Shown here one piece after another: positions 18,398 through 42,203 of a DNA stretch of 64,000 nt. The stretch covers positions 32,001-96,000 of IMG/VR virus record IMGVR_UViG_3300038524_000024; one strand, 5' to 3'. The notes below the pieces were generated by a model. It did not search any database, was not told where the DNA came from, and was given only the letters and a program-made list of their open reading frames with translations. The position numbers and the translations under genes are program-made. This stretch comes from a virus. Its lineage: Duplodnaviria; Caudoviricetes. Numbering within the stretch: the stretch's first letter is position 1; the number at the start of each line of letters is the position of its first letter.

Positions 18398-19641
18398 GTA
18401 ACCTCCGATAATTCTTTATATGCTGGCATCTCTATTCTTGTTATTATTTTTACGGTTTCAATAACTTGCATATTCATAATAACAAAGAATTCAGCAATTT
18501 CAGCGTATTGGATATCTACCAGAATGTGTCCATCTAATTGTATAGCGGACGTATTTATAATAACAACTTCTCCTTCGTGTGTTACATGAGTAACATCTCC
18601 AGATACTTCAAAACTAGATGCACAAGCAATATCGGACAATCCATTATGGATAGCATGTAATATACTTCCAATCACATTTAGTTCTGAAATTATAATAGTA
18701 TTTGATTCGCCTTCTAGTTCGCTAGCACTTAATCCACTGACACCTAGTAATGATGTTATTGTAATATTGGTTGAACCATCAATAACCATATGGTCAACAC
18801 TACCAATAACCTCTAATGTGGAGTTAGATATAATACTAGAAATTCCTTCTCGTATGCTAAAAATGCTAGCTTCAATCAGCATTGTAGAATCATTAACAAT
18901 AGTTACTGAACCCTCATGTACAGGGTGGACAATCGTAGCAGATATTACTAGCGTAGAATTTTGCTCAACACCAGCAACGCCTTCAAGTAAACTACCTACT
19001 TCGGGGAAAGCCAACAGATTAGATGTAACATCAATAGTAGTAGCGCCCTCGTGAATGGGATGTAAGACAGTCGCAGATACTTCTAATGTAGAAGTTCCTG
19101 AAACAATCGAAGCGCCCTCCTGCGTTCCCGCTTTCCAAGACGATGCTAAAAGTTCTGATGTGACATTAATTGTAGCTAAACCTTCATGAGTAGCATGTGT
19201 GACACTTCCCACCAAATCCATAGTGGATTGAGTGGTAATATCATTTGAGCCTTCCAAAATTGCATGTGTGATTGTATCTTCTGTCAATAACTGAGAAGTT
19301 ACAACAATTGCGGTTGCTCCTTCCAAAGTTTGATGTAATACTGTATCAACAGCGACTAAACTAGAAGTCGTATCAATCGCAGCACTAGCCTCAATGGTTT
19401 CGGCGCTTACTCCAACAGCTAATAATTCACTTGTGATGACAATAGCTGTTTCCCCTTCGAATACCGCATGAGTAACCGTTCCAACTAAGTCAGTATAGAG
19501 TTCACCAGATGTATTTAATGAGGAAGTGCCGCTAATTGAGGCACTTCCTTCATGGTAAACTCCAGTAACAGGGAAATAGTTGAGTGCCCAATAGTATTGT
19601 CCAAAATAACTATCTGATAAAATATAGGTTTCTTTCGCCAT
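18394..19641 (-). CDS. Repeat-rich putative virion structural protein
   Basis: Many (H)EGxxxIxxxSxL repeats; located in the tail module. Confidence 0.6.
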   Translation of the reverse strand: MAKETYILSDSYFGQYYWALNYFPVTGVYHEGSASISGTSSLNTSGELYTDLVGTVTHAVFEGETAIVITSELLAVGVSAETIEASAAIDTTSSLVAVDTVLHQTLEGATAIVVTSQLLTEDTITHAILEGSNDITTQSTMDLVGSVTHATHEGLATINVTSELLASSWKAGTQEGASIVSGTSTLEVSATVLHPIHEGATTIDVTSNLLAFPEVGSLLEGVAGVEQNSTLVISATIVHPVHEGSVTIVNDSTMLIEASIFSIREGISSIISNSTLEVIGSVDHMVIDGSTNITITSLLGVSGLSASELEGESNTIIISELNVIGSILHAIHNGLSDIACASSFEVSGDVTHVTHEGEVVIINTSAIQLDGHILVDIQYAEIAEFFVIMNMQVIETVKIITRIEMPAYKELSEVT

Positions 19642-19662
19642 AGACACTCCTTTCTAACAGGT

Positions 19663-20367
19663 TTATACTGTTAAGGTTATTTTTGACCTGTTTCCATTTG
19701 TATCTACTGCTGCCACAATTACATTTGATGTATCGTCAACACCACGGAAAGTTATAGTTGAAGTTTCTGCTCCGGACACTTTTCCAGCTAATGCTGATGC
19801 GAGTATTTTAAGAATTTGGCGCATGGTGTAAGTACCAACAACAAGTTCATCTAAAATAGAATCTACTGCTTCGGATGTTAATTTTACCCCGTCCGTGCCA
19901 GTGTCGGCGAGGATGTCCGTGACCGCCTTGCTGAATGAGCCAGCGGAAGTGTGTCCGCTTGTGGCTTCATCCAGAACAGCATCAGCAATGCCAGCCGCAG
20001 TAACGCCAGCCAACTCGTACCAGCGCGTAGTCCAGTCAGGCGTTGAAGTGTCGCCAGCCAAGCCGTCAACGTAAACCGTCAGCACGTCCCCATTCCTGAC
20101 CGTAATCCAGCCGGATTGCCCTGAGATTGCGGTCAAGCCCGAAGCCGCCGCCATCGTGGTTTGTGGCAGGATGCGGTAAGCCGAGCCAGAGCCGCCGATT
20201 TGCCGAGTAACGTACATAACGTAATCGCCGTTGCCAGCCACCGCGTCTATTGATACATCGCACATGACGAGCTTATCGCCTGTTGACGTGTAAGCCCCGA
20301 CTGCGGTTGCCGCGCTGATGTCTACATTCGTTCCTGTATCCGTTTCTAAGTGCGTAAATACTGCCAT
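19663..20367 (-). CDS. Putative tail-associated protein, compositionally chimeric
   Basis: ADAVLDE..GH...GSF repeat; C-terminal T.RQ.L...ASALAGKVSG..D.NGNR; 5' part GC-rich, 3' part AT-rich. Confidence 0.65.
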   Translation of the reverse strand: MAVFTHLETDTGTNVDISAATAVGAYTSTGDKLVMCDVSIDAVAGNGDYVMYVTRQIGGSGSAYRILPQTTMAAASGLTAISGQSGWITVRNGDVLTVYVDGLAGDTSTPDWTTRWYELAGVTAAGIADAVLDEATSGHTSAGSFSKAVTDILADTGTDGVKLTSEAVDSILDELVVGTYTMRQILKILASALAGKVSGAETSTITFRGVDDTSNVIVAAVDTNGNRSKITLTV

Positions 20368-20379
20368 ATAAGCCTCCGA

Positions 20380-20655
20380 TTAGCCGCAACGTGATAAGAG
20401 TTGCGCGATGAATGCCGCCGATTGAAGTTCCGCGTTTGCCGAGCCCCACAGGTTGTAGATTGCCTCCGCCTGTTCCGCGTTCACGCCCAAATAACCTGAT
20501 AACGCGGTGAAGTCCGAGCCGAGTGCCACTTGGTCAAGCACGAGCTTGAGATTGTTCCAGTCATCCTTGACCCGTCGAAGCGAGTCAATCGCCGAGCGTG
20601 CCTGTGACGAAATGCGGCTTGCTGATGTTGAGATGTCGATGTATGCTGATGCCAT
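20380..20655 (-). CDS. Hypothetical protein
   Basis: 91 aa ORF with GGAGG RBS in the GC-rich segment. Confidence 0.7.
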   Translation of the reverse strand: MASAYIDISTSASRISSQARSAIDSLRRVKDDWNNLKLVLDQVALGSDFTALSGYLGVNAEQAEAIYNLWGSANAELQSAAFIAQLLSRCG

Positions 20656-20678
20656 AATAGTTCCTCCGATTAGATTGA

Positions 20679-21383
20679 TTAAAGTGCCGCTATTGCGGTG
20701 TGTAAGTTCCCCATTTGTGTATCAGTCAAGCCTGTGCTATAAAAGGCAATGGCGTAGATGTAGCCGCCAAAATATCTGCTTGGTGCGGCATAACGATTGC
20801 CAATAACAAGCCCATCTGAGTTTATTGCGGCAGTCTTAGCTATGTTTCCGACATCCGTGCCGTTAAAATAGGTATCAACTCGTGTCCCTGCGACCAAATT
20901 CATACCTACGGTGTGGTCTACTTTTATGTTGCCGCCAAAGTAGTTAGATAATAGCGTTCCGTCCCAGTCATAGTTTATGCTATTGCCTACATAGTTGGAG
21001 TTGATTTGGATTAGTGCAGTATAGGCATGGTTAAGGTTAAAGTAGTTTCCATAATCCCCTCCGCCCGCACCAGCCGCTTTTGCAAATACAATTACAGCAC
21101 CGATATTGCCAGTGTACGGCACAAGCAGTTGCGCGTCACCCGAAAAGTCCCATCCAGTTTCGCTTGCCCAACTTGGCGATGTGCCTTCTGCTGCGTTGTT
21201 GCCATTTCCCGACAAATCCACCAGCGAAGCCGCATAACTCGCCGCCCCCTTCGGTTGGTACGCTGCCACGCAACTGGTTATCGTGCCGCTCAAATCCCAC
21301 CAGCCGCCGCCAGCAACCGCCGCCTGACTTGACGGTTGGAATGTAGGCGAGAACGTGCGCCCGAATACTGAACCGAATGTCAT
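20679..21383 (-). CDS. Putative LamG/concanavalin-like virion receptor-binding protein
   Basis: MTFGSVFGRTF..AAYQPKGAASYAASL.DL.GNGN, C-terminal L.IG.R....FGG.I.A.AFYS..L; AGGAGG RBS and ATG 21383. Confidence 0.6.
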   Translation of the reverse strand: MTFGSVFGRTFSPTFQPSSQAAVAGGGWWDLSGTITSCVAAYQPKGAASYAASLVDLSGNGNNAAEGTSPSWASETGWDFSGDAQLLVPYTGNIGAVIVFAKAAGAGGGDYGNYFNLNHAYTALIQINSNYVGNSINYDWDGTLLSNYFGGNIKVDHTVGMNLVAGTRVDTYFNGTDVGNIAKTAAINSDGLVIGNRYAAPSRYFGGYIYAIAFYSTGLTDTQMGNLHTAIAAL

Positions 21384-21526
21384 GCTTGCCTCCTGTACGA
21401 AACGATGCGATACACGAACCTCTTCGCGTCCTTGTACCTGCTCTTGAAACTGCCAACGTGCCCATCCCACGGGTCAATCATCACGTAATCCTCATCCGCC
21501 AGCTTGCCGATAGAATAATTACTCAT
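21380..21526 (-). pseudogene. 48 aa chimeric ORF: native start fused to a C39-peptidase-like C-terminal remnant
   Basis: GAGGTG RBS, then MSNYSIGKLADEDYVMIDPWDGHVGSFKSRYKDAKRFVYRIVSYRRQA; GC content shifts after the first few codons. Confidence 0.5.
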
Positions 21527-21596
21527 ATTTCACCTCTACTTTACCATATAAAAGTTTCATTTTAAGACTGAGCACAATCGCTTGCGCCCCACTCTT

Positions 21597-21622
21597 AAAA
21601 CGGGGTGGTTTTACCCACCCCA
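21597..21622 (-). terminator. Intrinsic terminator
   Basis: GGGGTGG/CCACCCC stem followed by GTTTT on the - strand. Confidence 0.65.
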
Positions 21623-21639
21623 TTTCTAGTTGTTTATTA

Positions 21640-22338
21640 CTAAGACTCTTTTTCTCTTAGACACCTGCGTTTTGCAGATTCTCTCATTTTAGCTTTTGTC
21701 TCATCTGAATGTTTACAGCCTAGGCTATTTGTATTTCCGATTCTAGATTTAGACATCTTCTCTTTTGATTCCTCTGAATGTTTGTATCCTAGTGTGCGAG
21801 TATTTCCAAGTAAAGCATTACTCATTTTGGTTCTTGCTTCATCAGATGGGGTATGTCCTAAAGCATATTTATTCCCAACTAGAGACTCGGATATTTTTGC
21901 TTTATGGTCATCAGAAAGTTTTCTTCCCAATGTATTTTTGTTTCCTATGCCGTTTTTGTTTCCTAATGCGGCTTTACTCATTTTTTCCTTTGTCTCATCG
22001 GAATGCTTTAAGCCTTTCCTTGATATAAAAGCGTCTGTCGCTATATTATATTCGGGTTTAAGCCCATCTAGGCACGATTGCTCATATATGAACGTATTGT
22101 CAGCATCACAAAATAATAGTACGCCAAATTCAAAATTGTCTTCGCCATATTTATTCCATGCGTTTTGCAAGTGTGCGTTATCATGTTTGTTTTTTCGTAA
22201 ATCAATTAAGTGACGACCCCATCTTGTCCAAATATTAATAGAGCTTCCAATATATTTATGCCCGTTTAAATTGTTTACAATTTGGTAAACTCCCGGAATA
22301 GTGAGGGACTCTTTTCCAAAGTTTTTTGCAATGTTCAC
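21640..22338 (-). CDS. GIY-YIG homing endonuclease with NUMOD3 repeats
   Basis: GVYQI..YIGSS..R..H..L...H.N..LQNAW.KYG..E..PEYN; HS.ETK.KMS repeats. Confidence 0.92.
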   Translation of the reverse strand: MNIAKNFGKESLTIPGVYQIVNNLNGHKYIGSSINIWTRWGRHLIDLRKNKHDNAHLQNAWNKYGEDNFEFGVLLFCDADNTFIYEQSCLDGLKPEYNIATDAFISRKGLKHSDETKEKMSKAALGNKNGIGNKNTLGRKLSDDHKAKISESLVGNKYALGHTPSDEARTKMSNALLGNTRTLGYKHSEESKEKMSKSRIGNTNSLGCKHSDETKAKMRESAKRRCLREKES

Positions 22339-22414
22339 AGAACCTCACTTTCTTTTAGGTAGAATAGAAATGCTTTTGACACTTCTATTCTACCAATAAA
22401 TTATGTTTAATATC

Positions 22415-23218
22415 CTAAGATAAGGTGATATCTATAGCCCCGCTGGAAAACCTGAAGGTATCTCCGGAGTACACTGTTTTACTGGCAGTTAGCGTCTTAA
22501 AAAAGTACATATCTCCGGCGGCGTTGGCTGACCTTATCGACATGCCTACCACTGTTCCCCAATTTGCGCTAGCAACAGGGAATGTTTCAGTTGCGGTATT
22601 AGCAGTAAAACCGCCAGTCGCATTAGGGGCATCCCATTTTGCAGCGCCATGGCAAGTCACACGTGCGTATGAACCACCTGACACTTCAACACCACCAACA
22701 TCGGCAGCGTTTGGCATTGTAGTATACAATGTTAGCCATGCAGCAGTCGGTTGGGTGAAAGTAGCTCCATCGAGAATATGGTCAAGCATTTCATTGGCAA
22801 GGAATGTAGAAATATCCCCACCTAACGAAATATCCAGTGCTCCCGCGGCAATTGACAGAGTATCCCCTGTATCAACCTGCAAAGATGAACTGAATGAACC
22901 ATAGAACAAGAGGTTGCCACCTGTTGGGGCATCAAAAATACCAACACTAGTAATCAATCCCCAAACGCCAGTAGCTGTCGGAAATGTGATAGTAGCAGTA
23001 TTAGAGGTTGCGCCAGCAGAAGCTGCGTCAAAAGCACCCGTTAGTTGTTTACGTGCATAGGCGTTGGCTGAAGCTACTTCTGTGCCACCGCCCGCATCAG
23101 AGGGGGTAGCAGTAAATAAAGCAAGATAAACACTTGCTGGTGAAGCAAACGTTCCACTTCGTAGAACGTAGTCAATAAATTTTCCTTCAAGATAGTCGGA
23201 CATAATATTAACACTCAT
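22415..23218 (-). CDS. Phage tail protein with two tandem copies of one domain
   Basis: Two repeats of L.L.T..P....G.EV....YAR....N.....FP.A...WG.....I..A...G. Confidence 0.75.
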   Translation of the reverse strand: MSVNIMSDYLEGKFIDYVLRSGTFASPASVYLALFTATPSDAGGGTEVASANAYARKQLTGAFDAASAGATSNTATITFPTATGVWGLITSVGIFDAPTGGNLLFYGSFSSSLQVDTGDTLSIAAGALDISLGGDISTFLANEMLDHILDGATFTQPTAAWLTLYTTMPNAADVGGVEVSGGSYARVTCHGAAKWDAPNATGGFTANTATETFPVASANWGTVVGMSIRSANAAGDMYFFKTLTASKTVYSGDTFRFSSGAIDITLS

Positions 23219-23898
23219 TATAACTCCATTTCTTTTTGACTTTCATCAAAAATTTGTAATTTTTTTAATTTGTTTTTTCTTCCTCGTTCAACAGAAGCCA
23301 AACCTATTTTTGTTTTTGCTTCTTCCGTATGCTTTCTTCCAGTTGCAGCTTTACGAAATTTTTCTGTTGTTTCTTCAGAAAAAGGATTTTTAATCCCTTT
23401 GTTCCAAGGAACATTGCCTTTTTTAAAAGTGCCAACCGGATGTTTCCCTTTATTGCCCTCTGATATTTTTCGCTTATGCTCTTCAGACAAAGCTATACCA
23501 ACATGGAATTGTCTCAAAAACTCTTTTTGCTCATCAGACATTTTGTGTTTACTATTGGTTTCACCAATTTTCCTTTTGTGCTCGTCTGATAATTTCATTC
23601 CTTTATTTGGGCATAGAGCATCTATGGCAATATTATACTCTGGTTTATAATAATCTAAATAAATCTGTTCATAAAGTGTTGTATTTTCTCTATCACATAT
23701 TAAAAGTATTGAGAAGCTAAACGATTCTTCTCCATACTTTTCCCATGCTCTTTGAAACGCAACATTATGACTTTTATGTAAATTTAGATACCACCTATGT
23801 GTAATCCATCTTTCGTGTATATCAACAGAGCTACCAATATAAGAATGCCCGTTTACTTTATTTGTAATTTTATAAACGCCAGATATAATGTCTCTCAT
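23218..23898 (-). CDS. GIY-YIG homing endonuclease with NUMOD3 repeats
   Basis: GVYKI..YIGSS, PEYNI, SDEHKRKI repeats, PWNKG. Confidence 0.92.
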   Translation of the reverse strand: MRDIISGVYKITNKVNGHSYIGSSVDIHERWITHRWYLNLHKSHNVAFQRAWEKYGEESFSFSILLICDRENTTLYEQIYLDYYKPEYNIAIDALCPNKGMKLSDEHKRKIGETNSKHKMSDEQKEFLRQFHVGIALSEEHKRKISEGNKGKHPVGTFKKGNVPWNKGIKNPFSEETTEKFRKAATGRKHTEEAKTKIGLASVERGRKNKLKKLQIFDESQKEMEL

Positions 23899-23990
23899 AT
23901 TACCTCCTACAGTAACATCCTAATTTAAGTAGTGAGCGAAAGGCGTTTAGGATTACGCTCTTCGGGCTCGAGACCCTATTCGCTCACTTA
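23899..23990 (-). ncRNA. Putative structured 5' leader (three-way junction plus pseudoknot), copy 1
   Basis: AGUGAGCGAA-UA-GGG..CCC-GAAGA-GCGU(AAUCCUAA)ACGC-CU-UUCGCUCACU; loop complementary to downstream UUAGGAU and to the SD. Confidence 0.65.
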
Positions 23991-23992
23991 TC

Positions 23993-24151
23993 TTATTTTT
24001 TATTTTGTGTTTTTATTTTGTTTAGCATTCGACGGTCAACCGGAATGCCCAGAGCAGTGAGCCGCGCGAACGTAGCTCCGGTAGAGATTGCGCGTTGCCA
24101 GTCCATGCGCTTCTGGTATGAGCTTACGTCAATGCCAAAGGGGTAGGTCAT
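23993..24151 (-). pseudogene. Truncated GH25 lysin N-terminus
   Basis: MTYPFGIDVSSYQKRMDWQRAISTGATFA, then similarity is lost and the frame stops. Confidence 0.7.
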
Positions 24152-24192
24152 GCTTGCTCCTGCCATTGGCTTAGGTCGAGGATAGTGGTCAT
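24148..24192 (-). pseudogene. 14 aa remnant of a second GH25-like start
   Basis: MTTILDLSQWQEQA, ATGA-coupled at both ends; resembles the GH25 xDxSxWQ motif. Confidence 0.4.
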
Positions 24193-24530
24193 GCTTCGTC
24201 CGGCATGTCTGACCAGATTTCGTCACGCATCGCAATCAGCATCCGCGCCATTAACTTGAGCACGGTTTTCGCGCTGGCGATGTTGGTGACGTTGGCTTCG
24301 ATGTAATTCACCGCCTCTGCTGGCGTGATTGTTTTGAGCGCGGTTGCCTTCGCCGCTTCGTCTTTCGCCAGCCTGCGCCTTAGTCGTGCAGGATAGACAA
24401 TCTGCTCGTAAATCTCCCATTCTTCAGGTGTGAGCGTGCGGCTAAACTCGGCGTGATAGTTGCCAAGTCTTGTTTCAACAAGTGATGTTATCGGTATTCC
24501 TGCGTTTTGAAGTAGTGTTAGTTTATCCAT
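24189..24530 (-). CDS. Hypothetical protein, possible tail fibre assembly chaperone
   Basis: 113 aa, immediately downstream of the tail fibre gene. Confidence 0.6.
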   Translation of the reverse strand: MDKLTLLQNAGIPITSLVETRLGNYHAEFSRTLTPEEWEIYEQIVYPARLRRRLAKDEAAKATALKTITPAEAVNYIEANVTNIASAKTVLKLMARMLIAMRDEIWSDMPDEA

Positions 24531-24531
24531 G

Positions 24532-26328
24532 TTATGCCGCCTCGTATGTGAATGTGAAAGAGACAGATCTGTCTACGTTGTTCTGCTCTGCGCCAGTCAG
24601 GAAGTCCCAATCAAGTTCTGTAATTACGAATTTAGACGCACTGGCAACTAAATATATTCCGCCCATTGACCAAGTGGAACCGTTATTATAGCCAGCCGAG
24701 CCGGCATGCACATCATCATTATTCTTGGGCGGAACTGGTAAGGTTATTAATATCGGCTCCGCTCCTGCCCCAGCAGTTCCACCTTCGACGTTCCCCCACT
24801 GCCCTGTGACAGTGACAAGTTTACCAACTTGACAATAGCGGTTGATAAAGCAGCGGGTGTACGTTGGCGCCGTGCCGCCTGATACTGATAGCGTTGGCGT
24901 GTAGTTGAACCACTGGGGAAAGCCAACGGGCGATGTCTGATGACTGTAGAATGGCTGCGTCCACGTCTCATTAGCAAGCACGTGGTCGGTGTTCACGGCA
25001 ACAGTCAGCACGGTGTCGGCGATGCTGACAACCGTGCCGTATCGCTGCGTTGAGCCGGTATTGGTTATCCATTTTAGCCGGTCACCTACCGAGTAGACCG
25101 CTGCCGCGCCGCTCGAAACGTTGATGGTAGAGGCTGTTTTCCAAGAGAACGTGCCGGTAACAGGTATCCATCCGTTCTGATAAGAAACGGGCATGAAATA
25201 GGTGGAGTCTAAGTTGTCAAGTTTGTCAGAATCAGCCGCTTTTCCGGTTGCTGCCAAATAATAGCTTGCTGATTGACCGTTCAGTTTATCACTATCCACT
25301 GCTTGTGCGGCAACACCAAGATAGGTTGAGTCATGATTATGCGTAGACGTTGCAAAATAGTCGGTATTAAACCCATCAAATAAAATGCTATCCACTGCTT
25401 TTGCGGCAACACCAAGATAGGTTGAGTCATGATTATGCGTAGACGTTGCAAATGCTAAACTATCGAGTCCATCCAACAAATCGCTATCAACAGCCTTACT
25501 TGTCGCAGGTAAATAATAAGATGGTAAATTGCCACCTAATTTTTCAGAATCGGGTGCGTAACTTGCCCATGACAATATTCCATCGCTAGCCCTAAAAACA
25601 AAATTTCCGGTAGCTAAAGGATTTGGAGTCGTTATACCAGAAACTCTACCATATGCGTCGATTGTTACACCGATATATGTGCCGGGCGTCAAACTCATTG
25701 TTGGCAGTATAAGATTATGACTACCATCAACGCCTAACATAGAACCTATATTAATGCCCTCACTAGCAATTTTACCATTATATAATGAAACTCCAGACTC
25801 ATCAATAGTTTTATCATTGCTTACCATCAATAAATTACCGGCAGTGCTGTCACTAACAACGACCTGATTTGAAGTAACACCGCCCATCATAATCCATACT
25901 CCATTTTGATATTCAAAAGTATAAATTTTATTTGCGATTAAATCACCAACAGTTAAATTAGTTGCCACGCCAAGAGGAGATAACTTTTGCAATGTTTTAT
26001 TTCCACCAGAGTTTATATTCAATACGGCAGAATTTGTGTTAGATATATCCACGGAAAGTTGAATCTGTATTCCATTTGCCAACGTGCCTATATCGGAGCT
26101 TGTAGCTACATAGTTATTTTCCGTTGAGAAAGAACCATATATTCTAAAAAGCGTTCTAGCTAACTCCAAATCATCAATGCGAGAATCTGTTGATATGGCA
26201 TATGCATCAATTTTGCTAAAAGCAGAAGAAACCGCATTTTTATTTATTGTATCTCTCCAAGTTTTTACGGTAGGGTCATCAAAGTCATCATATACGTCTA
26301 GTTCCAACCTTGTTGTAATTGCACTCAT
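24532..26328 (-). CDS. Tail fibre / receptor-binding protein
   Basis: A.DSD.LDG..S repeats, H.HD..Y motifs, VTIDAYGRV, C-terminal gp37-like RY..VGKLV.V...ITLP domain. Confidence 0.85.
   Translation of the reverse strand: MSAITTRLELDVYDDFDDPTVKTWRDTINKNAVSSAFSKIDAYAISTDSRIDDLELARTLFRIYGSFSTENNYVATSSDIGTLANGIQIQLSVDISNTNSAVLNINSGGNKTLQKLSPLGVATNLTVGDLIANKIYTFEYQNGVWIMMGGVTSNQVVVSDSTAGNLLMVSNDKTIDESGVSLYNGKIASEGINIGSMLGVDGSHNLILPTMSLTPGTYIGVTIDAYGRVSGITTPNPLATGNFVFRASDGILSWASYAPDSEKLGGNLPSYYLPATSKAVDSDLLDGLDSLAFATSTHNHDSTYLGVAAKAVDSILFDGFNTDYFATSTHNHDSTYLGVAAQAVDSDKLNGQSASYYLAATGKAADSDKLDNLDSTYFMPVSYQNGWIPVTGTFSWKTASTINVSSGAAAVYSVGDRLKWITNTGSTQRYGTVVSIADTVLTVAVNTDHVLANETWTQPFYSHQTSPVGFPQWFNYTPTLSVSGGTAPTYTRCFINRYCQVGKLVTVTGQWGNVEGGTAGAGAEPILITLPVPPKNNDDVHAGSAGYNNGSTWSMGGIYLVASASKFVITELDWDFLTGAEQNNVDRSVSFTFTYEAA
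25292..25452. repeat. 65 bp direct repeat (96 bp period) in the tail fibre
   Basis: 25292-25356 and 25388-25452 differ at one base; encodes FATSTHNHDSTYLGVAA(K/Q)AVDS. Confidence 0.9.
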
Positions 26329-26870
26329 AAGTATTCCTCACTTTCTTTAAAGTCCAAATCGCTTAATAATTTTGTATTCCAATAAGAGATTGGAAATGGT
26401 ATTGGAACGGTACTATCATCATAATCCCAAGTTGATAAAACCCTCCAAAATCCAGCAGTAGCTTCCGCCCAAATACTAATAGTTCCGATTTTGCTAATAA
26501 AATTCGCCAATAGTTGTTCATAAAATTGAGCAAAGATACTTGGTGGTAATACTCCCATTGATAAGGACAATGCTTCTTGAGAGGTCAAAGTTGCTATTAT
26601 CTGAAAATTTTCCGCTAAAGGAAAAGGTAAATCAGAAAATTGCTCTAAAATGCCAGACATGGTTTCATCTATATAAAAAGCAAATCCCAATGGCACTGTA
26701 CTTCTAAGCATCTCGTCTATTGTACGAACTAAAGTGTCGTCTACATCATATGTAAAGGGTATAGATATTCTAGCAAAAGCGCTGTCAACCTTTGGAAATC
26801 CATCAATCAAAACATCAAAATTTTTTATAAGCGAAAGGATAACATCAAAATTTTTTTTAGATGTATCCAT
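26325..26870 (-). CDS. Hypothetical tail-region protein
   Basis: 181 aa ORF coupled to its neighbours. Confidence 0.6.
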   Translation of the reverse strand: MDTSKKNFDVILSLIKNFDVLIDGFPKVDSAFARISIPFTYDVDDTLVRTIDEMLRSTVPLGFAFYIDETMSGILEQFSDLPFPLAENFQIIATLTSQEALSLSMGVLPPSIFAQFYEQLLANFISKIGTISIWAEATAGFWRVLSTWDYDDSTVPIPFPISYWNTKLLSDLDFKESEEYL

Positions 26871-26882
26871 ATTATAACTCCA

Positions 26883-27287
26883 TTAAACATTTGTCATTTT
26901 GAACTTTAAAGCACTTGCAAGAAATACAAGAGTTGCACCAGATTGAACAATTCTTGTTGTTTGAAGCGCATCAAAATACCAAATATTTCCTCCGGTTGCT
27001 AAGTCTGATAGGAAAACATGGCTTATTGTACCCCAACTTCCAGTTGCTACCGGAAATGTTATAGAAGATAAATTTGATAATTCCCCGTTGGCAGCACTTG
27101 AAAAATATGCCTTTGTATTTAGAACTGCCACCCTCGCATAACTATTACCAACTGGTTCCGTTGCGCCAGTTCCAGTTGATGAAATGGTAGTGGTTGATAA
27201 ACCAACATAATAATTTGATGGTAGCGTAATACCAGTTGCTCCAAATAAATTATCCAAAATCTTGTTAGAAGCATATACAGTAATCAT
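26883..27287 (-). CDS. Phage tail protein (single copy of the domain duplicated in 22415-23218)
   Basis: YVGLST....TEP.G.SYARV...ITFPVATGSWGTI.H....D..TGGN. Confidence 0.75.
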   Translation of the reverse strand: MITVYASNKILDNLFGATGITLPSNYYVGLSTTTISSTGTGATEPVGNSYARVAVLNTKAYFSSAANGELSNLSSITFPVATGSWGTISHVFLSDLATGGNIWYFDALQTTRIVQSGATLVFLASALKFKMTNV

Positions 27288-27305
27288 ATAAAATCAATCC
27301 TTTCT

Positions 27306-27710
27306 TTATTCTGGCAAATATAAGTCATAAGACTCTGAAGTGCCATAAAACATTTGAAAAATGGTCATTGTTCCCTGAAAAGGAATGAAATATCCACTTT
27401 GATAACCCTCTAGGACAAGTTGATATATAAATTTGCCATATAAACTTTGTGTGTCTTCCGCATTCATAGTTACGGCGATAACATTATAAGGCTCTTCAGC
27501 AATTAATTGTCCTTCGATGTTTAATACTAATTTATCTAAATGCCCATAATGAGAGAGCTTAAAATTTGTAGACGTAGCACCAATCATTGATACTGGTGTA
27601 ATCATATCTAATTCATAAAAATGAAAATGATATTCTTGTTTTGACCCTCCCACAATCGCTAACGATGGTGCAGAACGCATTCCAACACTAACAAAATCGC
27701 AATTATCCAT
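27306..27710 (-). CDS. BppU-like tail tip protein, paralogue A
   Basis: VGGSKQEY.FHFYE.D.ITPVS ... EDT..LYGKF.YQ. Confidence 0.65.
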   Translation of the reverse strand: MDNCDFVSVGMRSAPSLAIVGGSKQEYHFHFYELDMITPVSMIGATSTNFKLSHYGHLDKLVLNIEGQLIAEEPYNVIAVTMNAEDTQSLYGKFIYQLVLEGYQSGYFIPFQGTMTIFQMFYGTSESYDLYLPE

Positions 27711-27721
27711 GGGTTACCTCA

Positions 27722-28093
27722 TTATGTTGAAGAGATTTGCTTATGAATATTAAGCAAACCCTGTATTGGTATAATAGTACCATAACTACCAAAGAGAGAT
27801 ATTTGGTAAACAAACTTACCATAGAGTCCTAAAGTATCTTCGTCTAATAGCAATATTCGAATAGAATTGTATGGTGATTCATTTACTTTTTGCCCATTGA
27901 CACTGAGTAAAACATTGTTTGGCTCTCCAAATTTTGTTATACTAAATATTATCGAAGTTGCCCAATCAATAGAAACCGGAGTAATCAAATCAGATTCATA
28001 GAAATGAAAAATGTATTCTTGTTGTGACCCACCTACAAAAGATATTTCTGGAATGTTATAAATATTATATTCACTAAATTCACAATCATCCAT
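27722..28093 (-). CDS. BppU-like tail tip protein, paralogue B
   Basis: Same motifs as 27306-27710. Confidence 0.65.
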   Translation of the reverse strand: MDDCEFSEYNIYNIPEISFVGGSQQEYIFHFYESDLITPVSIDWATSIIFSITKFGEPNNVLLSVNGQKVNESPYNSIRILLLDEDTLGLYGKFVYQISLFGSYGTIIPIQGLLNIHKQISST

Positions 28094-28292
28094 CGGCTAC
28101 CTCATTCAAGTTTTTTTGCTCGTCATCCTGTTCTTTGTTGTCTTCGGCAATTTGTTTCATAACGGAATCAAGTGTTAGTCCAGCATGGTATAAATAAGAT
28201 ACACTCTTACCTTTTACTTCTAATTCGGAAATATAATTACCAATGTTACTCAATTGTTGCAAACATGTTTCATTGATTTTATAAAATTTCAT
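28086..28292 (-). CDS. Small hypothetical protein
   Basis: 68 aa ORF with RBS after the Tal-like gene. Confidence 0.55.
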   Translation of the reverse strand: MKFYKINETCLQQLSNIGNYISELEVKGKSVSYLYHAGLTLDSVMKQIAEDNKEQDDEQKNLNEVADG

Positions 28293-28312
28293 TTTAATTC
28301 AATCCTTTTAAA

Positions 28313-31300
28313 TTAACTAAGCGCGGTAATAATACCATCTACAACCGACATATTTATTTGACCACCAGCATAACTTCTAAAACTTCTATTCGCAGTTACA
28401 CTACTATGATAATGATAATAACTAGCATATGTGCTTCCGTGACTATGACTGGTAGGGGCATATCTTGTATCGTTTTGTGCTATGCTCCATATTTGATTTG
28501 AGGCGTCAGTACCATCTTTCCAAAGACCTCCTGTTATCAGTGTTCCGGTTCCTGTATTTATTCTAAGATAGTTTGCAGTCAAGAATGTTGTTCCGACAGA
28601 GCCTAATGATAAAGTGGTAGCAGATGTAACATTTCCTTCTCCTGAAAACCACAATCCGATACCAAGTCCGCTACCTGCCTCCCCAATACTCCCCCCGGGG
28701 AATACAAATCTTCCACCGGAAACACGATACCCACTTAAACTTCCTGCGGTAAATCCACCTAAACTATACCCAGTACCAGTATTGATTCTATCAACGGGAA
28801 CAGGCGCATTAGTAATTTGGCTCCAATCAACCGCACCCAAAAGTCTTGTAGCACTTATTGTTCCGGTTGTACTAGTAATATCCCCGGTAAATGTTCCAGT
28901 CGCAGCAGATAATGACCCGCTGAATACACCACTTCCTTTAATGGTCAAAACACCATTCTCCCATTTTAGATAACTTGTATCGGTGGCACTACCAAGATAA
29001 AAATTGCCAGCATTGTCCATATATGTTTTCCACGATGCTATGCCAGTCGTTGGATTTTTATATACATATCCTAACTTTTCATAATCAATATGCAAACCTG
29101 TTTCGGTATTTCCAGCTTGAACATATCTTGGTTTGCTAGCAACACTGTCCCAAGCATATCCTGTAGACTGAGAAATATCGCCCGTGAATATTCCACTACC
29201 TTTAATTTTTAAAGTGCTAGTCGCAGAAGTCCACGATAAATAGTTAGCATTGTTTTCAGCACCAAGATAAAAGTTACCAGCATTATCCATATATGTTTTC
29301 CAACCAACTGGAGCTTCATAATATCCTAAGCGGTCAGACGATATGTGTAATCCTTTCGTTGGAGCATCTTCATCTATAACATACAATGGCTTTCCTGCTA
29401 AGGTATCCCAAGTTTCTGGCGGTGGTATTACGGGATATGGTGGCAAATCATAAATAGATGTGTGAGATATTCTTATGTTTCCATCCGAACCTATACTAAG
29501 TACTTCCGCCCCACCAGTCTTTTTGATTACAATACCAACTTCTGGATTTATATCAATTACATTTTTAGCATTAGATAATTCTAGGTTCATATTTTTTGCT
29601 TTTAAACCAGAGGCATCTACTAAAAATGTTGCCAATTCAGAATTAACATTGTTTTGAATTACTAGGCTATTACCAGCAATCATTCTTCCAACCAGCGCTT
29701 CGGCAACTACCCCATATAGATTTTGACCACCAAAATTTATTTCTCCCAGAGCCATTTTCACACTCTGCCAATTATTATTGGTAAAAGCTATTTGGTTGCT
29801 AGTGAGCCAAATTTGATTTGGTTCATATCCAGTTACTGTCTTTTGCCTTCCAATAAGCCCATTTGGTGTCAACGAAATTTCCTGGTCTTTGGTCGCCATT
29901 AGCGTTGTCAACGAAGCGTTTAACGCTTCGTCTATATACTGATTTACTGCTTGTTGACCACTTTCTACCCAATCGCTCCAGTCCCCAGCGCTATATTTTA
30001 CCTGCGAAATTGTTCTATCGGCATCTGAATTGATATCTCCTAATTCAATTTCCGAATTAGCTAATCTCAGCCTATTACTCAATAAGAATTTGAAGTCAGT
30101 TGGTACATCATAATTATAGTCAAATCCCAAAATTATGGGAACAAACAACGTATCGTTATTTCCATCTTCAAGTTGCACATATAAAGAGCTTCCAAGTGCT
30201 AACTGGTCAATAAAAGGTTGGAAATATTTTATAAATATAAAATTATGCAAATCAAGAGAAAATTCATATGATGGTTGTGATACCTTATTAGAAATAATCA
30301 CCCCTTGTGCATATAAATCTAAGGCCATTTGTTGTACTTGCTGTAACGTCATCATGTCTGTTTGCAAGAAGTTGCGATTATCATACGCACCAGCAAAAAT
30401 AAAATTATTTAATTGAGCCAATTGCGCTATTGTAAAATTCGCCTCTATTTTGCAAGTGTTATTGATTACAACAAGTTCATTTTGCTTAGTGCCTATTTGC
30501 AGTTGTTTAGCCTCTATCTCGGCTTGTTTATTGTCTACGGCAAGTTGCGCAGCAATAACCGCATTTTGTTCAACCGACGTGTTAGTTTTACCAGAATCTA
30601 TAGCTAACTTCAAAGTATTTTGTTTTATAAGCAACTGCGTTTGTAGATATTCAAGCCCTGTCGTTGTATTGGTACGCAAATCATATATTTCTCGCTGATA
30701 TGTCATTAGTTGTGTTAATTTAGTGGCATATGATGATTGATAACCTGCTATTTTTGTTTTCCAAGCATCAATAGCCGTAATTAGGTCGCTAGACATCCAC
30801 TCAAGATTTTTATAGTAATCAAAATTATAAATAATGTCATCCCCGGTTGGATTTACCTGATTGATGGTTAAATCATCTTTACCATATACACTTAATGCAG
30901 TTATAATATTATCGGAATTTTCATCAATACTAACATTTTCTAGCAAATTTTCATAAGATAAATAAATATCAGTTTTTGTTATGGCATTTGTCAATGCTTG
31001 TGCGTTGATTTTTTTGTTGAATGTATCAAATGTAAAAACACATTGATATGCTTGTTCCATTTCTTTCATTAAGAAAGTATAGACAGTCGTATCTTTTTCG
31101 TCAAAAGTTCTATATAGGTTATATAATGATGAATCAAGTGTTCCAAGAGACCATCCCGGCATATAAATAAGCAACTTATGCATCAAACTGTTTGCTTGAT
31201 TGGACGCATCATAAAATTTCCAAGTGCCTTTTATGTTTAATATTTTACGAAATGATAGTTCAAATTCTAATGATTTAGCTTCAACGTCTTTGTAAATCTT

Positions 31301-31576
31301 TGCTCCATCAGATTTTTCTATTACCTTAGTAATAATAAACATGCCAATATCTGGAATCTGTATTCTGCGCTTGCCAACAAGATATGAATAATATGGCATA
31401 GCAGTACCATTAATAGTTTTTGGAGCAGAAAATTTAATAGTAGAAACCGCATTATATCTTAAACTTACTTGTCTATCGTAAATGCCACCTATATTGAAAA
31501 GTTTAGTCCCGTCTGGATTGCATAATATATAATCTGGCACCTCATATTGTGAAAAAGAATCGAATTTTTGTATCAT
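28313..31576 (-). CDS. Tail tip / Tal-like protein (YomG-like)
   Basis: Follows Dit; prophage-tail-like N-terminus, coiled coil, FT..NW.S.K.ALG, duplicated WKTYMDNAGNFYLG. Confidence 0.75.
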   Translation of the reverse strand: MIQKFDSFSQYEVPDYILCNPDGTKLFNIGGIYDRQVSLRYNAVSTIKFSAPKTINGTAMPYYSYLVGKRRIQIPDIGMFIITKVIEKSDGAKIYKDVEAKSLEFELSFRKILNIKGTWKFYDASNQANSLMHKLLIYMPGWSLGTLDSSLYNLYRTFDEKDTTVYTFLMKEMEQAYQCVFTFDTFNKKINAQALTNAITKTDIYLSYENLLENVSIDENSDNIITALSVYGKDDLTINQVNPTGDDIIYNFDYYKNLEWMSSDLITAIDAWKTKIAGYQSSYATKLTQLMTYQREIYDLRTNTTTGLEYLQTQLLIKQNTLKLAIDSGKTNTSVEQNAVIAAQLAVDNKQAEIEAKQLQIGTKQNELVVINNTCKIEANFTIAQLAQLNNFIFAGAYDNRNFLQTDMMTLQQVQQMALDLYAQGVIISNKVSQPSYEFSLDLHNFIFIKYFQPFIDQLALGSSLYVQLEDGNNDTLFVPIILGFDYNYDVPTDFKFLLSNRLRLANSEIELGDINSDADRTISQVKYSAGDWSDWVESGQQAVNQYIDEALNASLTTLMATKDQEISLTPNGLIGRQKTVTGYEPNQIWLTSNQIAFTNNNWQSVKMALGEINFGGQNLYGVVAEALVGRMIAGNSLVIQNNVNSELATFLVDASGLKAKNMNLELSNAKNVIDINPEVGIVIKKTGGAEVLSIGSDGNIRISHTSIYDLPPYPVIPPPETWDTLAGKPLYVIDEDAPTKGLHISSDRLGYYEAPVGWKTYMDNAGNFYLGAENNANYLSWTSATSTLKIKGSGIFTGDISQSTGYAWDSVASKPRYVQAGNTETGLHIDYEKLGYVYKNPTTGIASWKTYMDNAGNFYLGSATDTSYLKWENGVLTIKGSGVFSGSLSAATGTFTGDITSTTGTISATRLLGAVDWSQITNAPVPVDRINTGTGYSLGGFTAGSLSGYRVSGGRFVFPGGSIGEAGSGLGIGLWFSGEGNVTSATTLSLGSVGTTFLTANYLRINTGTGTLITGGLWKDGTDASNQIWSIAQNDTRYAPTSHSHGSTYASYYHYHSSVTANRSFRSYAGGQINMSVVDGIITALS

Positions 31577-31583
31577 CTTATTA

Positions 31584-32381
31584 CTATGCTCCTATTTTTC
31601 GTGAGAACTGATATACCATTATAAAGTCTTGAAATCTACCATAAAGATTTATGATGTTCTCACCCGGCAATAGTCTTAACCAATTGCTACTAAAATATTG
31701 CATTAACTTTCGGTTTTGGTTTGACGTAATTATTTTGTTAATATTGTCTATTGTAACAACCTCATCAACCAATAGTCCTCCAGTAAAGGAAAGCAAACGA
31801 CTTGGCTCTGCTAAATTTTTTATCACTAAGCCCGTTGAACTTTTTGATTTAAATCGTACTACCGGGTATACATACCCGTCTTCAGCACTATCATTATAAA
31901 TTGCCGGTAGGTTTACATTAACAGTGTTGGACAAATGACCAACATGCGTAGCATATTTTGGCAAGCTCCATCCAAATCCAGAATCACAATGAGCAGTGTA
32001 TCTTATGGCATACAAGAAATTCCCAACATATATAGGAGTAGCATTTATAAAAATTACGTTGAAATAAGTGTCAACCATATCTCCTTGAACAATTTGTAAT
32101 TTTTTATATGAGCTTCTACCCAACATCCACCTATTGATAGAATCAAAGTCAATAGCGGTTCGTTTGTTGCAATCTCCAACTGTAAATTCAAATTCTAGCG
32201 AGGTATGATGAACTCTTTTATAAAAGTATGGTTTAGTTCTATGGATTTGATACTCCTCTATAATTGTTGATGCACCAGCAGACATACCTTCTTGTAAGCC
32301 TGTTTCAAAATTAATAATTTGCAAACCATATTCCTCTGATGGGACACCATCATAAATAAAAGTAGAACCGTAGAAAGCCAT
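31584..32381 (-). CDS. Distal tail protein (Dit, YomH-like)
   Basis: F.YDG.PSEEYGL.I, CDS.FGWS, IYNDS...VYP, WLRLLPGEN; ATG 32381 after AGGAGG. Confidence 0.8.
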   Translation of the reverse strand: MAFYGSTFIYDGVPSEEYGLQIINFETGLQEGMSAGASTIIEEYQIHRTKPYFYKRVHHTSLEFEFTVGDCNKRTAIDFDSINRWMLGRSSYKKLQIVQGDMVDTYFNVIFINATPIYVGNFLYAIRYTAHCDSGFGWSLPKYATHVGHLSNTVNVNLPAIYNDSAEDGYVYPVVRFKSKSSTGLVIKNLAEPSRLLSFTGGLLVDEVVTIDNINKIITSNQNRKLMQYFSSNWLRLLPGENIINLYGRFQDFIMVYQFSRKIGA

Positions 32382-32400
32382 AGCCCTCCTTTCAATTGTT

Positions 32401-32430
32401 GGGTGAGCCATTATATTAACTGGCTCACCC
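32401..32430 (-). terminator. Hairpin after the tape measure gene
   Basis: GGGTGAGCCA/TGGCTCACCC 10 bp stem; weak U tract. Confidence 0.5.
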
Positions 32431-32439
32431 TTAATTAGA

Positions 32440-35400
32440 TTAAATTGTATTAAAGTTACTAGAAGACCGCAATCCAGCGTTGTCCCTAATAGACATAATA
32501 GCCTTAGAGACAGCTCTCTCTAAGTCCGGCAAAACTGAGTGGTCTAAATTTCCAGAAACAGGTATGGTTATATCAACTTTAATATCTCCGGTTTGTTTTC
32601 TACCATTGTCGACTAGACTTGGTAAGGTGTTCTTTATGAAGTTATGTGCTTGCTCTTTTGTTGTAACAACTTCACCTTTTAGTAATTTTGCAAATACCTC
32701 TTGCTCAGGTATCTGCGGCAGTTCACCAACAATACCACCAGAGTGATACATTAGTGCTGGAATATTACGTCCACCGCCACCCATAGTTAGAACAATATCT
32801 GCCCCAAGAGCATTTAAGTCTGCAACATGAGCTAAGGCTTGTGCAAGTGTCATGGCTTGTGATATAGCATGGGCAGTCTTTGTTGTAAGACTATCTATAG
32901 CATTTCCAGCATTACTAGCCATCCCGGAAATAGCACTTCCAGCCGAACTAGCAAAATTTTGAACAGCAGTAGCGCCTTGCATTCCAAAAGTTTCAATCCA
33001 AGCAATTGCGCCCTTCCAAGCGTCAACTACGTCTGTAGAAATTCCACTTCCATAAGTCATATTCCATTCCATCAATTCGTCGTAAAATTCTTTTGTTCTA
33101 TCGTGAATTAATGCTTGGGCTTCTTGAACAATTAGCCCTTCTTCTTCCAAGTACTTATCTAATGCATCTAACTTTGAATTAATATTTTCAGTAAATAGTT
33201 CTAATTCTATGTCTAATGCATCTTCTTGTGCTTGAATTCGTTGGTCAAATTGTTCGTCTTCCAATTCAGTTTTAGCATCGGCAAGTTGTTCCTCTAACGC
33301 TAACCTTCTTGCAATGCCTTCTTGCGAAGTGTCAAATTGTATTTGAGCAAGTTCTGCTTCGAGGTTTACAATTGTATTTGTTCGCTTGCTAATTTCCTTC
33401 GTGTCAGAACGCTGTTTCTTTTGTATGTCTAGTTCTTCTTTTTTTGCTTTGATAAGCTTCTTATACGCGTCTAATTCCTCTTTGAGTGCATCTTTAGCAC
33501 GTTTAGCTCTATCTTTCAACATAGCAACGGTCATTTTTAATAAATCTTGATATGATTTTTCTGCTTCTGACCTTGCTTTAGCTTCCGCTTCTGCAGCTTC
33601 CTGTTCTGGTGTTTTTCCACCGCCTCCACCGCCACCCCCATCAGGTTGCGTAGGTGGTTTATATCCACCCCCACCAGACCATATATCGTTACCAAAATTA
33701 GGTGGTGTCATTGATTGTGGATTGAATATTGTTGAAAGATTATTTCCCAAATTAGACAGTTCCTCTGTGCCAATGGTTGCCCCACCAGACATTGAAATAT
33801 TTGGTACTTGTATTGGGAAACTATCTACCTTAAATATTTGTCCAAAAAATTTTGGTAGCGGCCAGTTTATAGTTGAGAAACCATCTACTTTTGCAGTAAA
33901 TGACATTTTGAATGACGATATGACACTAGCTAAACTTGTCATAGCAGATTGAATTGCTTTGTTTTGGTTAGCCACGCTTTCATTAACTCTAGCGGTCATT
34001 TGTGTGGCGAAGTTACTAAAATTGCCAACCCCGCCAGTTAAATAACCATATATGGCTTCCGCACTAGTCAATGCTTTTCCTGCACTATCTGTAAATGCTA
34101 AACCACTTTGTTGAGAATAGTTCCATGCGGCTTCAGAAAGAGATTTATAATATGCAAGAGCACTTTCAGCACCGGTTTGGAACTGACTAAACATATCGCC
34201 GGACATGACTGAATCATATCCCTGTCGCAGTAAGTCTGCTGTATCAGACATGTTTACAAGGTCTTGAGTTGATTGTTGAAGAGCTACGCTATAACTAGCG
34301 TGAGATTCCGTCAAAGCTCGAACTTGTTCATCACTCAATCCAAGAGCGTCTTTATTTTCGATTATGGCGTTATACTGATTTTCAATCATCTCAGTAGCAC
34401 CAACGAGACCATCTATATAGTCGGTGATGGCTATGTCACCACTTTCGAACTCAGAATTAAGACTGTCTAATGCAACTAATCCGTTTGTGAATAATGTGGT
34501 AAAAAACCTTTGGGCGGAATCGGTGCTATCATCAAACATATTGATAATATCACGGTTTGCCGTAATTTCTGACAATGTATCAAAATACGCTCCAACAGAT
34601 ATTTTTCCATCTTCAAAGTTTTTGTTTAAATCAACGATACGCTGACCAAACGACTCAAATGCTTCTTTTGCTTCGCCCTGCAATGAGCTAGCTAAACTCG
34701 CTACCAAAGATTCAAAACTCTTAAATTGGTCTGCTAGTGCATTTGCTTTTGGAGCGTTTGTTTCTCCCTCTAACATGGCGTTTAAAGCCTTGATAAGAGG
34801 ATTATCTTTTCCAAATTCATTGATTAATTCTTGGCGAAATTCAGCACCAGCACTAACCCATGTTGAAAATAACTCTGAAGCAAATTCCTTAGCGACCTTT
34901 TCACTATCTTCGATAGCCTTTTCAGCATCACCTTCGCTTATTGCAAAATCTTGGAGCAATATGCTAAGAACATCTTCACCATCAGTAAGCCAGTCTTCGT
35001 AATTGAAAAGAGCATCTCTTAATGTTTTTTGTGTTTCAGTTAAGACTTCATCAGCCGTACCAGAAATATTGTACAACCATCCAAGCAAAGCCTGATTAGC
35101 TGTTTGCCCTTGTTTAGCACCACTCTCAACAATACCTTTGATTAATGAGGGAAGTTGCTCTGCGGCTTGCGCTACTTTGATTGCTTGTGTAAGTTTCTCA
35201 TATTCTTTTATTTTTTCGGATATGGTTATCTTGAAACTTGCTTCTTCTTCGCCTGTAAGTTTGCCCTGTTCTCTGAGTAAGTCATTTACCGTCTCTATGG
35301 CAATAGCTTCTTCTAAATACCAACCCATTTTCCCATAATGCCAGCCCTCATACTCTGGTATGAGTTGGTGCAAAATAGCGTATTGGTCATATAAAGCGCC

Positions 35401-37938: not shown

Positions 37939-37975
37939 CCACAAATCCTCCTTTCAGTTACACTACCCGTATAAA

Positions 37976-38980: not shown

Positions 38981-38991
38981 ACTTCCTCCGT

Positions 38992-39450
38992 TCAATCAAT
39001 ACGTACAAGTATTTCAGTTCTTGGACGGTCTTTGTCGTAATCTATTTTTAATGTTAAGCTATGTATGTGCTTATAATCATCGTCTACAATGAATCCTGCT
39101 TCTACCAAACCATCAATTAAAAACTTTGGTGACATATTATCAACGTCTGCACGGATTTTGGTTTTGAGATATGAAGTACATTCCATTTTACAACCCTGAA
39201 TTTTTAATCCAGATAATCCTTCGTTCTCTACAAACCATACGATAAATTCTTTCCACTTACCTTTTAGCGCATTCATTTCTGGTCTGCGCATCACAAACCA
39301 AGCATTTATAGAAGGATGTGTTGGTCTATCAATAGGTGGTACCTTTCTTTTTGGATACCTAGAAAAGTAAAAATTATTATAATCATTTAATGTGTTTTCA
39401 TCTATTACTAGCTTAATGGTATCCCCCGACTTATATTGTTGATTAGTCAT
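38992..39450 (-). CDS. RusA-like Holliday junction resolvase
   Basis: PSIN..., RADVDNMSPKFLIDGL...IVDDD, PRTEI. Confidence 0.8.
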   Translation of the reverse strand: MTNQQYKSGDTIKLVIDENTLNDYNNFYFSRYPKRKVPPIDRPTHPSINAWFVMRRPEMNALKGKWKEFIVWFVENEGLSGLKIQGCKMECTSYLKTKIRADVDNMSPKFLIDGLVEAGFIVDDDYKHIHSLTLKIDYDKDRPRTEILVRID

Positions 39451-40168: not shown

Positions 40169-40260
40169 TTTTGCCTCCTGTGGCAACTCCCGAATTAATG
40201 AAGAACGGAAAGGACATTTCAGGAAGTATGTCTTTTCGGGAGCTACCCTATTCCGTTCTT
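40169..40260 (-). ncRNA. Putative structured 5' leader (three-way junction plus pseudoknot), copy 2
   Basis: AAGAACGGAA-UA-GGG..CCC-GAAAA-GACAU(ACUUCCUGAA)AUGUC-CU-UUCCGUUCUU; loop complementary to UUCGGGAG and to the SD CAGGAGG. Confidence 0.65.
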
Positions 40261-40287
40261 TCAATACAATTTAAAACAGTTCAATAT

Positions 40288-42120: not shown

Positions 42121-42149
42121 TTATTATTTCTCCTTATATGTTATTATAG

Positions 42150-42186: not shown

Positions 42187-42203
42187 GCTATTTTATATTA
42201 TTT

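Follow-up and report, generated by a model that had tools for sequence, protein, structure and literature searches.

The two RNA leaders that directly precede GIY-YIG homing endonuclease genes in this phage are new members of a known RNA family without an assigned function, the int-alpA RNA (Rfam RF02996), in an unusual host range and genomic context. Across the family, the loop of the third helix (P3) appears, judged by complementarity and duplex energies, to have two possible partners in the RNA that follows: one just past the junction and one at the Shine-Dalgarno sequence (SD) of the next gene. We favor, at a probability of roughly 55%, a role in cis-acting translational control, in which pairing of the loop with the SD would hinder initiation, the proximal site would serve as a decoy, and the ratio between the two would set output.

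When short regions of the window (the 64,000-nt stretch of viral DNA analyzed here) were scanned, leader copy 1 matched RF02996 with 43.0 bits (E = 4.6e-8; 23918-23986, minus strand) and copy 2 with 45.2 bits (E = 1.2e-8; 40189-40258, minus strand), both above the curated gathering score of 35.8 bits and both spanning positions 1-71 of the 71-position model. The initial annotation had recognized no named family and was wrong on this point; the Rfam scan that it had called for removes the novelty of the leaders and leaves their reality intact, as it had itself allowed. Aligned to the structure line of the model, both copies follow the layout P1-UA-P2-GAAAA-P3-CU-P1' with its conserved junction bases, and the 3' tail of each, aligned to model positions 58-71, is the proximal complement of the P3 loop, corresponding to the consensus pairing of loop CCuU against tail AgGG. 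The shared architecture that had been described for the two leaders, with compensatory changes and fixed junction bases, was confirmed base for base by reading of the sequence (Table 1).

Table 1. The two int-alpA leaders, their parts, and the GIY-YIG genes of the phage, in window coordinates
Feature	Position	Strand	Description
giy3	21640-22338		Third GIY-YIG gene; plain hairpin upstream instead of a leader
giy1	23218-23898	minus	GIY-YIG + NUMOD3 endonuclease gene, 226 aa (Pfam PF01541, PF07460)
Leader copy 1, whole	23899-23990	minus	int-alpA-type three-way junction plus tail, abutting the AUG (23898) of giy1
Copy 1 junction core	23931-23988	minus	From sequence reading and a minimum-energy fold with all three helices
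Copy 1 P1	23988-23979 / 23940-23931	minus	AGUGAGCGAA / UUCGCUCACU, 10 bp
Copy 1 junction UA	23978-23977	minus
Copy 1 P2	23976-23964	minus	GGG/CCC; loop UCUCGAG (23967-23973) contains the palindrome CUCGAG
Copy 1 junction GAAGA	23963-23959	minus
Copy 1 P3	23958-23943	minus	GCGU/ACGC; loop AAUCCUAA at 23947-23954
Copy 1 junction CU	23942-23941	minus
Copy 1 proximal complement of P3 loop	23923-23917	minus	UUAGGAU, 7 bp, 7 nt past P1'
Copy 1 SD hairpin	23916-23899	minus	GUUAC/GUAAU; SD GGAGG (23907-23903) in the loop
A-rich spacer	23991-24030	minus	GC 0.18; 5' of copy 1, part of the low-GC block that also spans leader and giy1
giy2	39443-40168	minus	GIY-YIG + NUMOD3 endonuclease gene, 241 aa (Pfam)
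Leader copy 2, whole	40169-40260	minus	int-alpA-type three-way junction plus tail, abutting the AUG (40168) of giy2
Copy 2 junction core	40201-40260	minus	From sequence reading and alignment to the Rfam model
Copy 2 P1	40260-40251 / 40210-40201	minus	AAGAACGGAA / UUCCGUUCUU, 10 bp, then UA
Copy 2 P2	40238-40248	minus	GGG-UAGCU-CCC; loop UAGCU (40241-40245) contains AGCU
Copy 2 junction GAAAA	40233-40237	minus
Copy 2 P3	40213-40232	minus	GACAU/AUGUC; loop ACUUCCUGAA at 40227-40218; CU next
Copy 2 proximal complement of P3 loop	40194-40187	minus	UUCGGGAG, 6 nt past P1'
Copy 2 SD hairpin	40171-40186	minus	UUGCC/GGCAA; holds CAGGAGG (40180-40174)
giy4	53535-54200		Fourth GIY-YIG gene; directly after its neighbor

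A scan of the whole window against Rfam at gathering thresholds gave 0 matches, and a whole-window E-value scan together with a search of the virus's own genome found copy 1 and missed copy 2; since short-region scans recover both, the speed filters of Rfam evidently hide the short int-alpA motif in long inputs. With filters off, our own covariance model (R2) found exactly two sites in the 64 kb window, copy 1 at 44.1 bits and copy 2 at 58.3 bits, followed by a next match at 13.7 bits, and a descriptor scan of the complete 104,987-bp virus record returned only the same two. Given the two Rfam E values, the two R2 sites in 64 kb and the two descriptor sites in the record, the leaders are not a product of chance. 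In Rfam scans, neither leader matched the preQ1-II or SAM-II riboswitches or the rpsO leader, no tRNA or tmRNA was found in the window, and megablast of 20 kb against cultured phages gave no match. A hammerhead ribozyme, considered for a junction containing GAAA, was rejected: such a ribozyme would need CUGAUGA between stems I and II and a cleavage triplet after stem III, the junction strand is just UA, and no Rfam hammerhead model matched at E ≤ 10.

The int-alpA motif was reportedly one of the candidates of Weinberg and colleagues from 2017. Its name presumably reflects a position between integrase and alpA genes in proteobacterial islands or prophages, a context that lies outside the Rfam model. 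Among the neighbors tested in the window, no AlpA domain was found; copy 1 is flanked by a remnant of a GH25-like open reading frame (ORF) and giy1, copy 2 by a lysin gene and giy2, with an integrase-like gene 1.2 kb farther along. The window copies differ from the family in further respects: they precede GIY-YIG genes in a phage contig of 35% GC with a lysin that looks Firmicutes-like, and their P1 closes with A-U pairs (GAA/UUC) instead of the usual GGC/GCC. The main text of Weinberg et al. (2017; NAR 45:10811, PMC5737381) does not mention int-alpA, and we found no functional study in the literature on int-alpA or RF02996.

Thermodynamic folding recovered the three-way junction in copy 1 (RNAfold; core z = -4.35), and the pseudoknot-free minimum-energy fold of copy 2 differs from the junction fold (z = -2.86). 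Downstream of the junction, each window copy also carries its SD in a small local hairpin, of -6.2 kcal/mol (z = -3.49) in copy 1 and -6.1 kcal/mol (a modest z = -1.17) in copy 2, the latter retained as UUGCU/GGCAA in the orthologous leader of a syntenic relative (L234). This hairpin, which the initial annotation had pointed out, is clear in the two window copies and weak across the family (mean z = -0.39). As with the ribosome-binding-site hairpins of T4 I-TevI, Aeh1 mobE and T4 segB, each window leader is upstream RNA able to occlude the SD of a nuclease gene in a phage operon; a small local SD hairpin is present in both copies as well. The T4-type elements are single hairpins, relieved by a late promoter that starts inside the 5' arm (PMC3014915), whereas the window leaders consist of a conserved three-way junction and a loop with two alternative partners, also serve many non-nuclease genes elsewhere in the family, and have no relationship to the T4-type hairpins by sequence or model. 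Control of the T4 type was therefore rejected for these leaders: the conserved unit is the junction with its two-site tail, and no promoter-like site was found inside either SD hairpin of the window copies.

Relatives were gathered by two pattern scans of viral contigs and two rounds of our own covariance model, which gave 100 matches, 95 of them unique. A strict hand-written descriptor proved too insensitive, and covariance models were used in its place; MAFFT alignments of the leaders were structurally wrong 3' of P3, and the model was bootstrapped from a gapless pair. The search patterns fixed P2 and the three inner pairs of P1, so those positions carry no covariation evidence. The remaining pairs of P1 and P3 covary strongly among 90 distinct relatives, as the initial annotation had proposed to check: each of the outer five pairs of P1 and the inner three pairs of P3 shows 29-56 double changes, and standard pairs fill 94.2% of cells, against 69% with shuffled partners and 27-52% with slid ones. 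The leader of L234 scores merely 18 bits and differs from the window copies in the sequences of P1, P2 and P3 alike, yet has the same minimum-energy junction fold.

The position of the element relative to the next gene is as regular as its fold. A start codon with an SD lies on the same strand 25-45 nt past P1' in 74 of 89 relatives (83%), compared with 3 of 90 (3%) on the opposite, control side; the median distance is 33 nt (interquartile range, 31-36), and in both window copies the start codon lies 34 nt past the 8-bp P1' core of the family alignment. Such spacing points to a leader that acts in cis and is hard to square with the trans-acting small RNA implied by the Rfam type (Gene; sRNA). 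Beyond that label, a small RNA would call for an end of its own, and no terminator-like site follows either copy; each P3 loop moreover fits the sites downstream of it better than the corresponding sites in other members. We regard a trans-acting RNA as highly improbable and take int-alpA to be, on its arrangement, a cis leader.

The same spacing bears on whether the element works as DNA, be it a cruciform, an operator, a recombination site or an endonuclease target, and not as RNA. Across the family the counts of G-U and A-C are symmetric (34 against 30) and do not distinguish which strand folds, P2 with a palindromic loop makes a near-continuous DNA palindrome, and the element lies at the margin of inserted cassettes, all of which would suit a DNA-level function. 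The fixed orientation and distance to the start codon would not, nor would the complements of the loop, which track the SD region of each gene; P1 and P3, in turn, vary freely yet stay paired, a pattern that no single DNA-binding protein would tolerate. A DNA-level element is very unlikely on this evidence.

Sequences upstream of P1 suggest that the leader is usually the very 5' end of a transcript, because -10-like hexamers cluster 3-7 nt ahead of P1 across the family, 15 of them ending at distance 3 and another 8 at distance 7, and because L234 has a perfect sigma-70 promoter, TTGACA-17-TATAAT (L234:5762-5791), ending 7 nt upstream of P1. Copy 1 is preceded by TAAGAT, a weak -10-like hexamer whose end is 3 nt from the 8-bp P1 core. 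The region upstream of copy 2 (40261-40290) holds TTGAAC and, after a 12-nt spacer, TATTGA; set against L234, this resembles a promoter that has decayed. As these promoter-like sequences are poor, and a sigma-70 promoter scan of the window gave no site that would start either leader, the two window copies may be read mainly from upstream.

A 5' end of this kind could also indicate a stabilizer or processing module, in which P1 buries the +1 end made by the promoter, the pseudoknot compacts the RNA, and complementarity to the SD has a secondary or merely tuning role; the module would shield the message of an autonomous gene cassette from RNases that depend on the 5' end, or mark a processing site. 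The upstream hexamers and the L234 promoter agree with this idea, as does the occurrence of the element before many unrelated genes. However, a simple 5' hairpin would be enough for protection, neither window copy has a convincing sigma-70-type promoter, and both the tight spacing between leader and start codon and the cognate complementarity of loop and SD are left unexplained. We therefore consider a stabilizer or processing module fairly unlikely.

Pairings between loop and sites were scored as duplex energies, without pseudoknot geometry. On that scale the best proximal duplex of copy 1 (AUCCUAA/UUAGGAU) comes to -7.4 kcal/mol, and the distal complement, (G)UAGG(AG) inside the loop of the SD hairpin, pairs weakly, with 4 Watson-Crick pairs and -5.6 kcal/mol. 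In copy 2, the proximal pairing CUUCC-GAA/UUCGGGAG comes to -9.1 kcal/mol and the distal one to -10.7 kcal/mol; its distal complement, CAGGAGG (40174-40180), is the SD itself. The dual complementarity that the initial annotation had read from these two leaders is confirmed in both and upheld across 95 relatives beyond controls with non-cognate loops. In 77% of 87 leaders, the segment from P1' to the start codon contains two non-overlapping complements of the loop at -4 kcal/mol or better; shuffling the loops lowers this share to 19%. The median start of the proximal site is 5 nt past P1' and that of the distal site 15 nt ahead of the start codon, on the SD, and their median duplex energies are nearly equal (-7.3 and -6.7 kcal/mol, respectively). 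At both sites a leader's own loop fits better than loops borrowed from other members (58 distinct loops, p ≤ 0.0002), and this advantage persists when the comparison is made with 16 types of loop that differ from one another by 4 or more edits (p = 5e-5 for either site). Nor is the match a generic one between pyrimidines and purines, since for some loops (UCUCAUCAC, AUUCGUUAC and CAUCGUCA) the matching sites merely abut the SD. The second complement, at the SD, lies outside the Rfam model.

We propose that the int-alpA element would work in cis, in the 5' leader of whichever gene comes next, with the three-way junction presenting the P3 loop for pairing with one of the two downstream sites at a time. 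Proximal pairing, 6-7 nt past P1, would form a compact pseudoknot and leave the ribosome-binding site accessible, and distal pairing on or abutting the SD would hinder binding of the 30S subunit. The partition between the two states may then set translation of the downstream accessory gene, which in this phage would be either of two free-standing GIY-YIG homing endonucleases. SD-occluding structures are known to limit translation of I-TevI, mobE and probably segB (PMC3014915), and cis control matches this hiding of the SD by phage homing endonuclease genes. We infer that the loop engages these sites in vivo, with translation repressed by the distal pairing and released by the proximal one; the switch and the restraint of a toxic nuclease that the initial annotation had suggested are likewise inferences.

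The preQ1-II and SAM-II riboswitches and the E. coli rpsO leader are SD-sequestering pseudoknots. With these the int-alpA leaders share a pseudoknot between a loop and the 3' tail that involves or lies near the SD, and a conserved core that may bind a factor, both putative in int-alpA; they differ in having two competing sites in the tail. A conserved core with two nearly isoenergetic partners is an anatomy of the riboswitch type, as judged from sequence and energies. It could be that the junction is a sensor, riboswitch-like or protein-binding, or that the P2 loop dimerizes, so that a widespread factor or a second copy of the RNA settles the choice of partner for the P3 loop. At the junction, UA, GAARA and CU hardly vary from host to host, the near-equal energies of the two sites recall bistable switches, and P2 loops are enriched for palindromes of 4-6 nt (20 of 31 distinct loops, against 8.6 ± 2.3 in shuffled ones). 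Self-complementary loops include AGCU (copy 2), CUCGAG (copy 1), UGCA (L234), GCGC, GGCC and CUGCAG, and would allow RNA kissing dimers. On the other hand, the commonest P2 loop of the family, UAGCU, may be kept for a tertiary contact, and the downstream genes have no common metabolic theme that would point to a ligand; we judge a sensor or dimer unlikely. Conservation of the P2 loop and of the junction bases is very strong and exceeds the needs of a plain two-state competition, so that part of the mechanism is missing from the translational control that we favor. A bolder version, which we hold tentatively and consider rather unlikely, is that int-alpA would be a portable bistable switch for accessory and selfish genes of phages and islands, the choice between decoy and ribosome-binding site being made by an invariant junction that senses a widespread cellular factor or by dimerization through the palindromic P2 loop.

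Both window leaders stand directly before the GIY-YIG genes to which they had been assigned, and giy1 and giy2, each with GIY-YIG and NUMOD3 domains, are 34% identical. Specificity of the leader for homing endonuclease genes was not borne out. It precedes two of the four GIY-YIG paralogues of the phage and is present at only 2 of 80 loci encoding their closest GIY-YIG relatives. Among 83 downstream proteins across the family, 15 are DUF1376 proteins and about 20, about a quarter, are nucleases (HNH_3, HNH, HNH_5, GIY-YIG/NUMOD3, endonuclease VII and LAGLIDADG); the others include methylases, antirepressors, primase-like genes, DUF927 proteins and an integrase. Cultured carriers include Geobacillus phage D6E, where the leader stands before an HNH gene (ORF15) surrounded by structural genes, and the P22-like Salmonella phage BIS08P22, where it stands before the CDS at 19392. 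Given this mixture of genes and the low counts at GIY-YIG loci and among the paralogues, the int-alpA leader is a module placed ahead of accessory genes, among which nucleases are over-represented. A 68 kb relative (G001) has a second leader (L240:1470-1555, minus strand; 30.5 bits; P2 loop with CUGCAG), which stands before a different, I-TevI-like GIY-YIG gene, itself downstream of a 473-aa ORF.

A degenerate third leader was considered before giy3 and rejected, as the region holds just a simple hairpin of 16 bp and yields no match to R2 even with filters off. The hairpin (22358-22394, minus strand), located between a Gp80-like fiber gene and giy3, is perfect, has the loop CAAAA and is not followed by a U-tract; it folds at -22.6 kcal/mol (z = -4.97) and is no relative of int-alpA by the covariance model.

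Base composition and synteny give circumstantial support to the idea of the initial annotation that the leader travels with its endonuclease gene. GC content falls from 0.58 (24031-24151) to 0.18 in the A-rich spacer, stays low through the tail of the leader and giy1 and rises again in the next gene; as the jump lies upstream of the leader, copy 1 is inside the same low-GC block as its nuclease gene. At the locus of copy 2, the unit of leader and gene is kept in L234, where a lysin 49% identical to that of the phage is followed by the leader, a GIY-YIG gene, a 152-aa ORF and an integrase-like gene. A search with the lysin for an endonuclease-free allele returned one syntenic relative, also with leader and endonuclease gene, and a search with the 152-aa ORF returned one unrelated context; no endonuclease-free allele of either site was found. 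DNA contigs of four wastewater runs matched 22300-42200 in short pieces, none of which bridged an insertion site, and no RNA run was found to contain this DNA. An apparent 16.3 kb joint (23671-40008) in wastewater contigs was discarded, being explained by the similarity of the two paralogues.

Several observations concern the surroundings of the two copies. A 52-aa ORF (23993-24151, minus strand) has a start that weakly resembles the N-terminus of GH25 lysozymes (FGIDVSSYQ; E = 0.028 for Pfam GH25 positions 1-25, short of the cut-off) and runs into the A-rich spacer; it may represent a lysin gene that the cassette has cut short, whose counterpart, the intact lysin gene (40288-42120), stands directly before copy 2. 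Contigs of three wastewater runs pile up on 23628-24291, with a summed depth of 25-55 against 3 or less beside it, and part of this segment (the 5' end of giy1, the leader and the GH25-like piece) is common to other, more abundant sequences. From about 19500 to 25300, GC content is about 45-58%, against 35% for the genome. This block comprises fiber-like genes, a 598-aa ORF and a 113-aa ORF, is broken up by two GIY-YIG cassettes of low GC, and has the look of a module, with endonuclease genes at its seams, that was acquired from a phage of higher GC. Between a 1,834-aa tape-measure-like ORF and the lysin region lies a tyrosine-recombinase-like gene (37976-38995, minus strand; a weak Phage_integrase match), which, like the 152-aa ORF, is conserved in L234; the phage itself is roughly 105 kb.

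For the window alone, the outcome is the annotation of two RNAs of a known family. Many RNA motifs catalogued from bacteria and phages, the int-alpA RNA among them, are without an assigned function, and for int-alpA the analysis provides a concrete, testable model: a promoter-proximal leader that would choose between a decoy and the ribosome-binding site, placed before swappable genes in phages of Proteobacteria and Firmicutes. If cis translational control holds, it would explain the low or timed expression of phage nuclease and accessory genes inside essential operons, and the leader would be a compact, host-independent part for translational control. Were the portable bistable switch to prove true, int-alpA would represent a new class of riboregulator.
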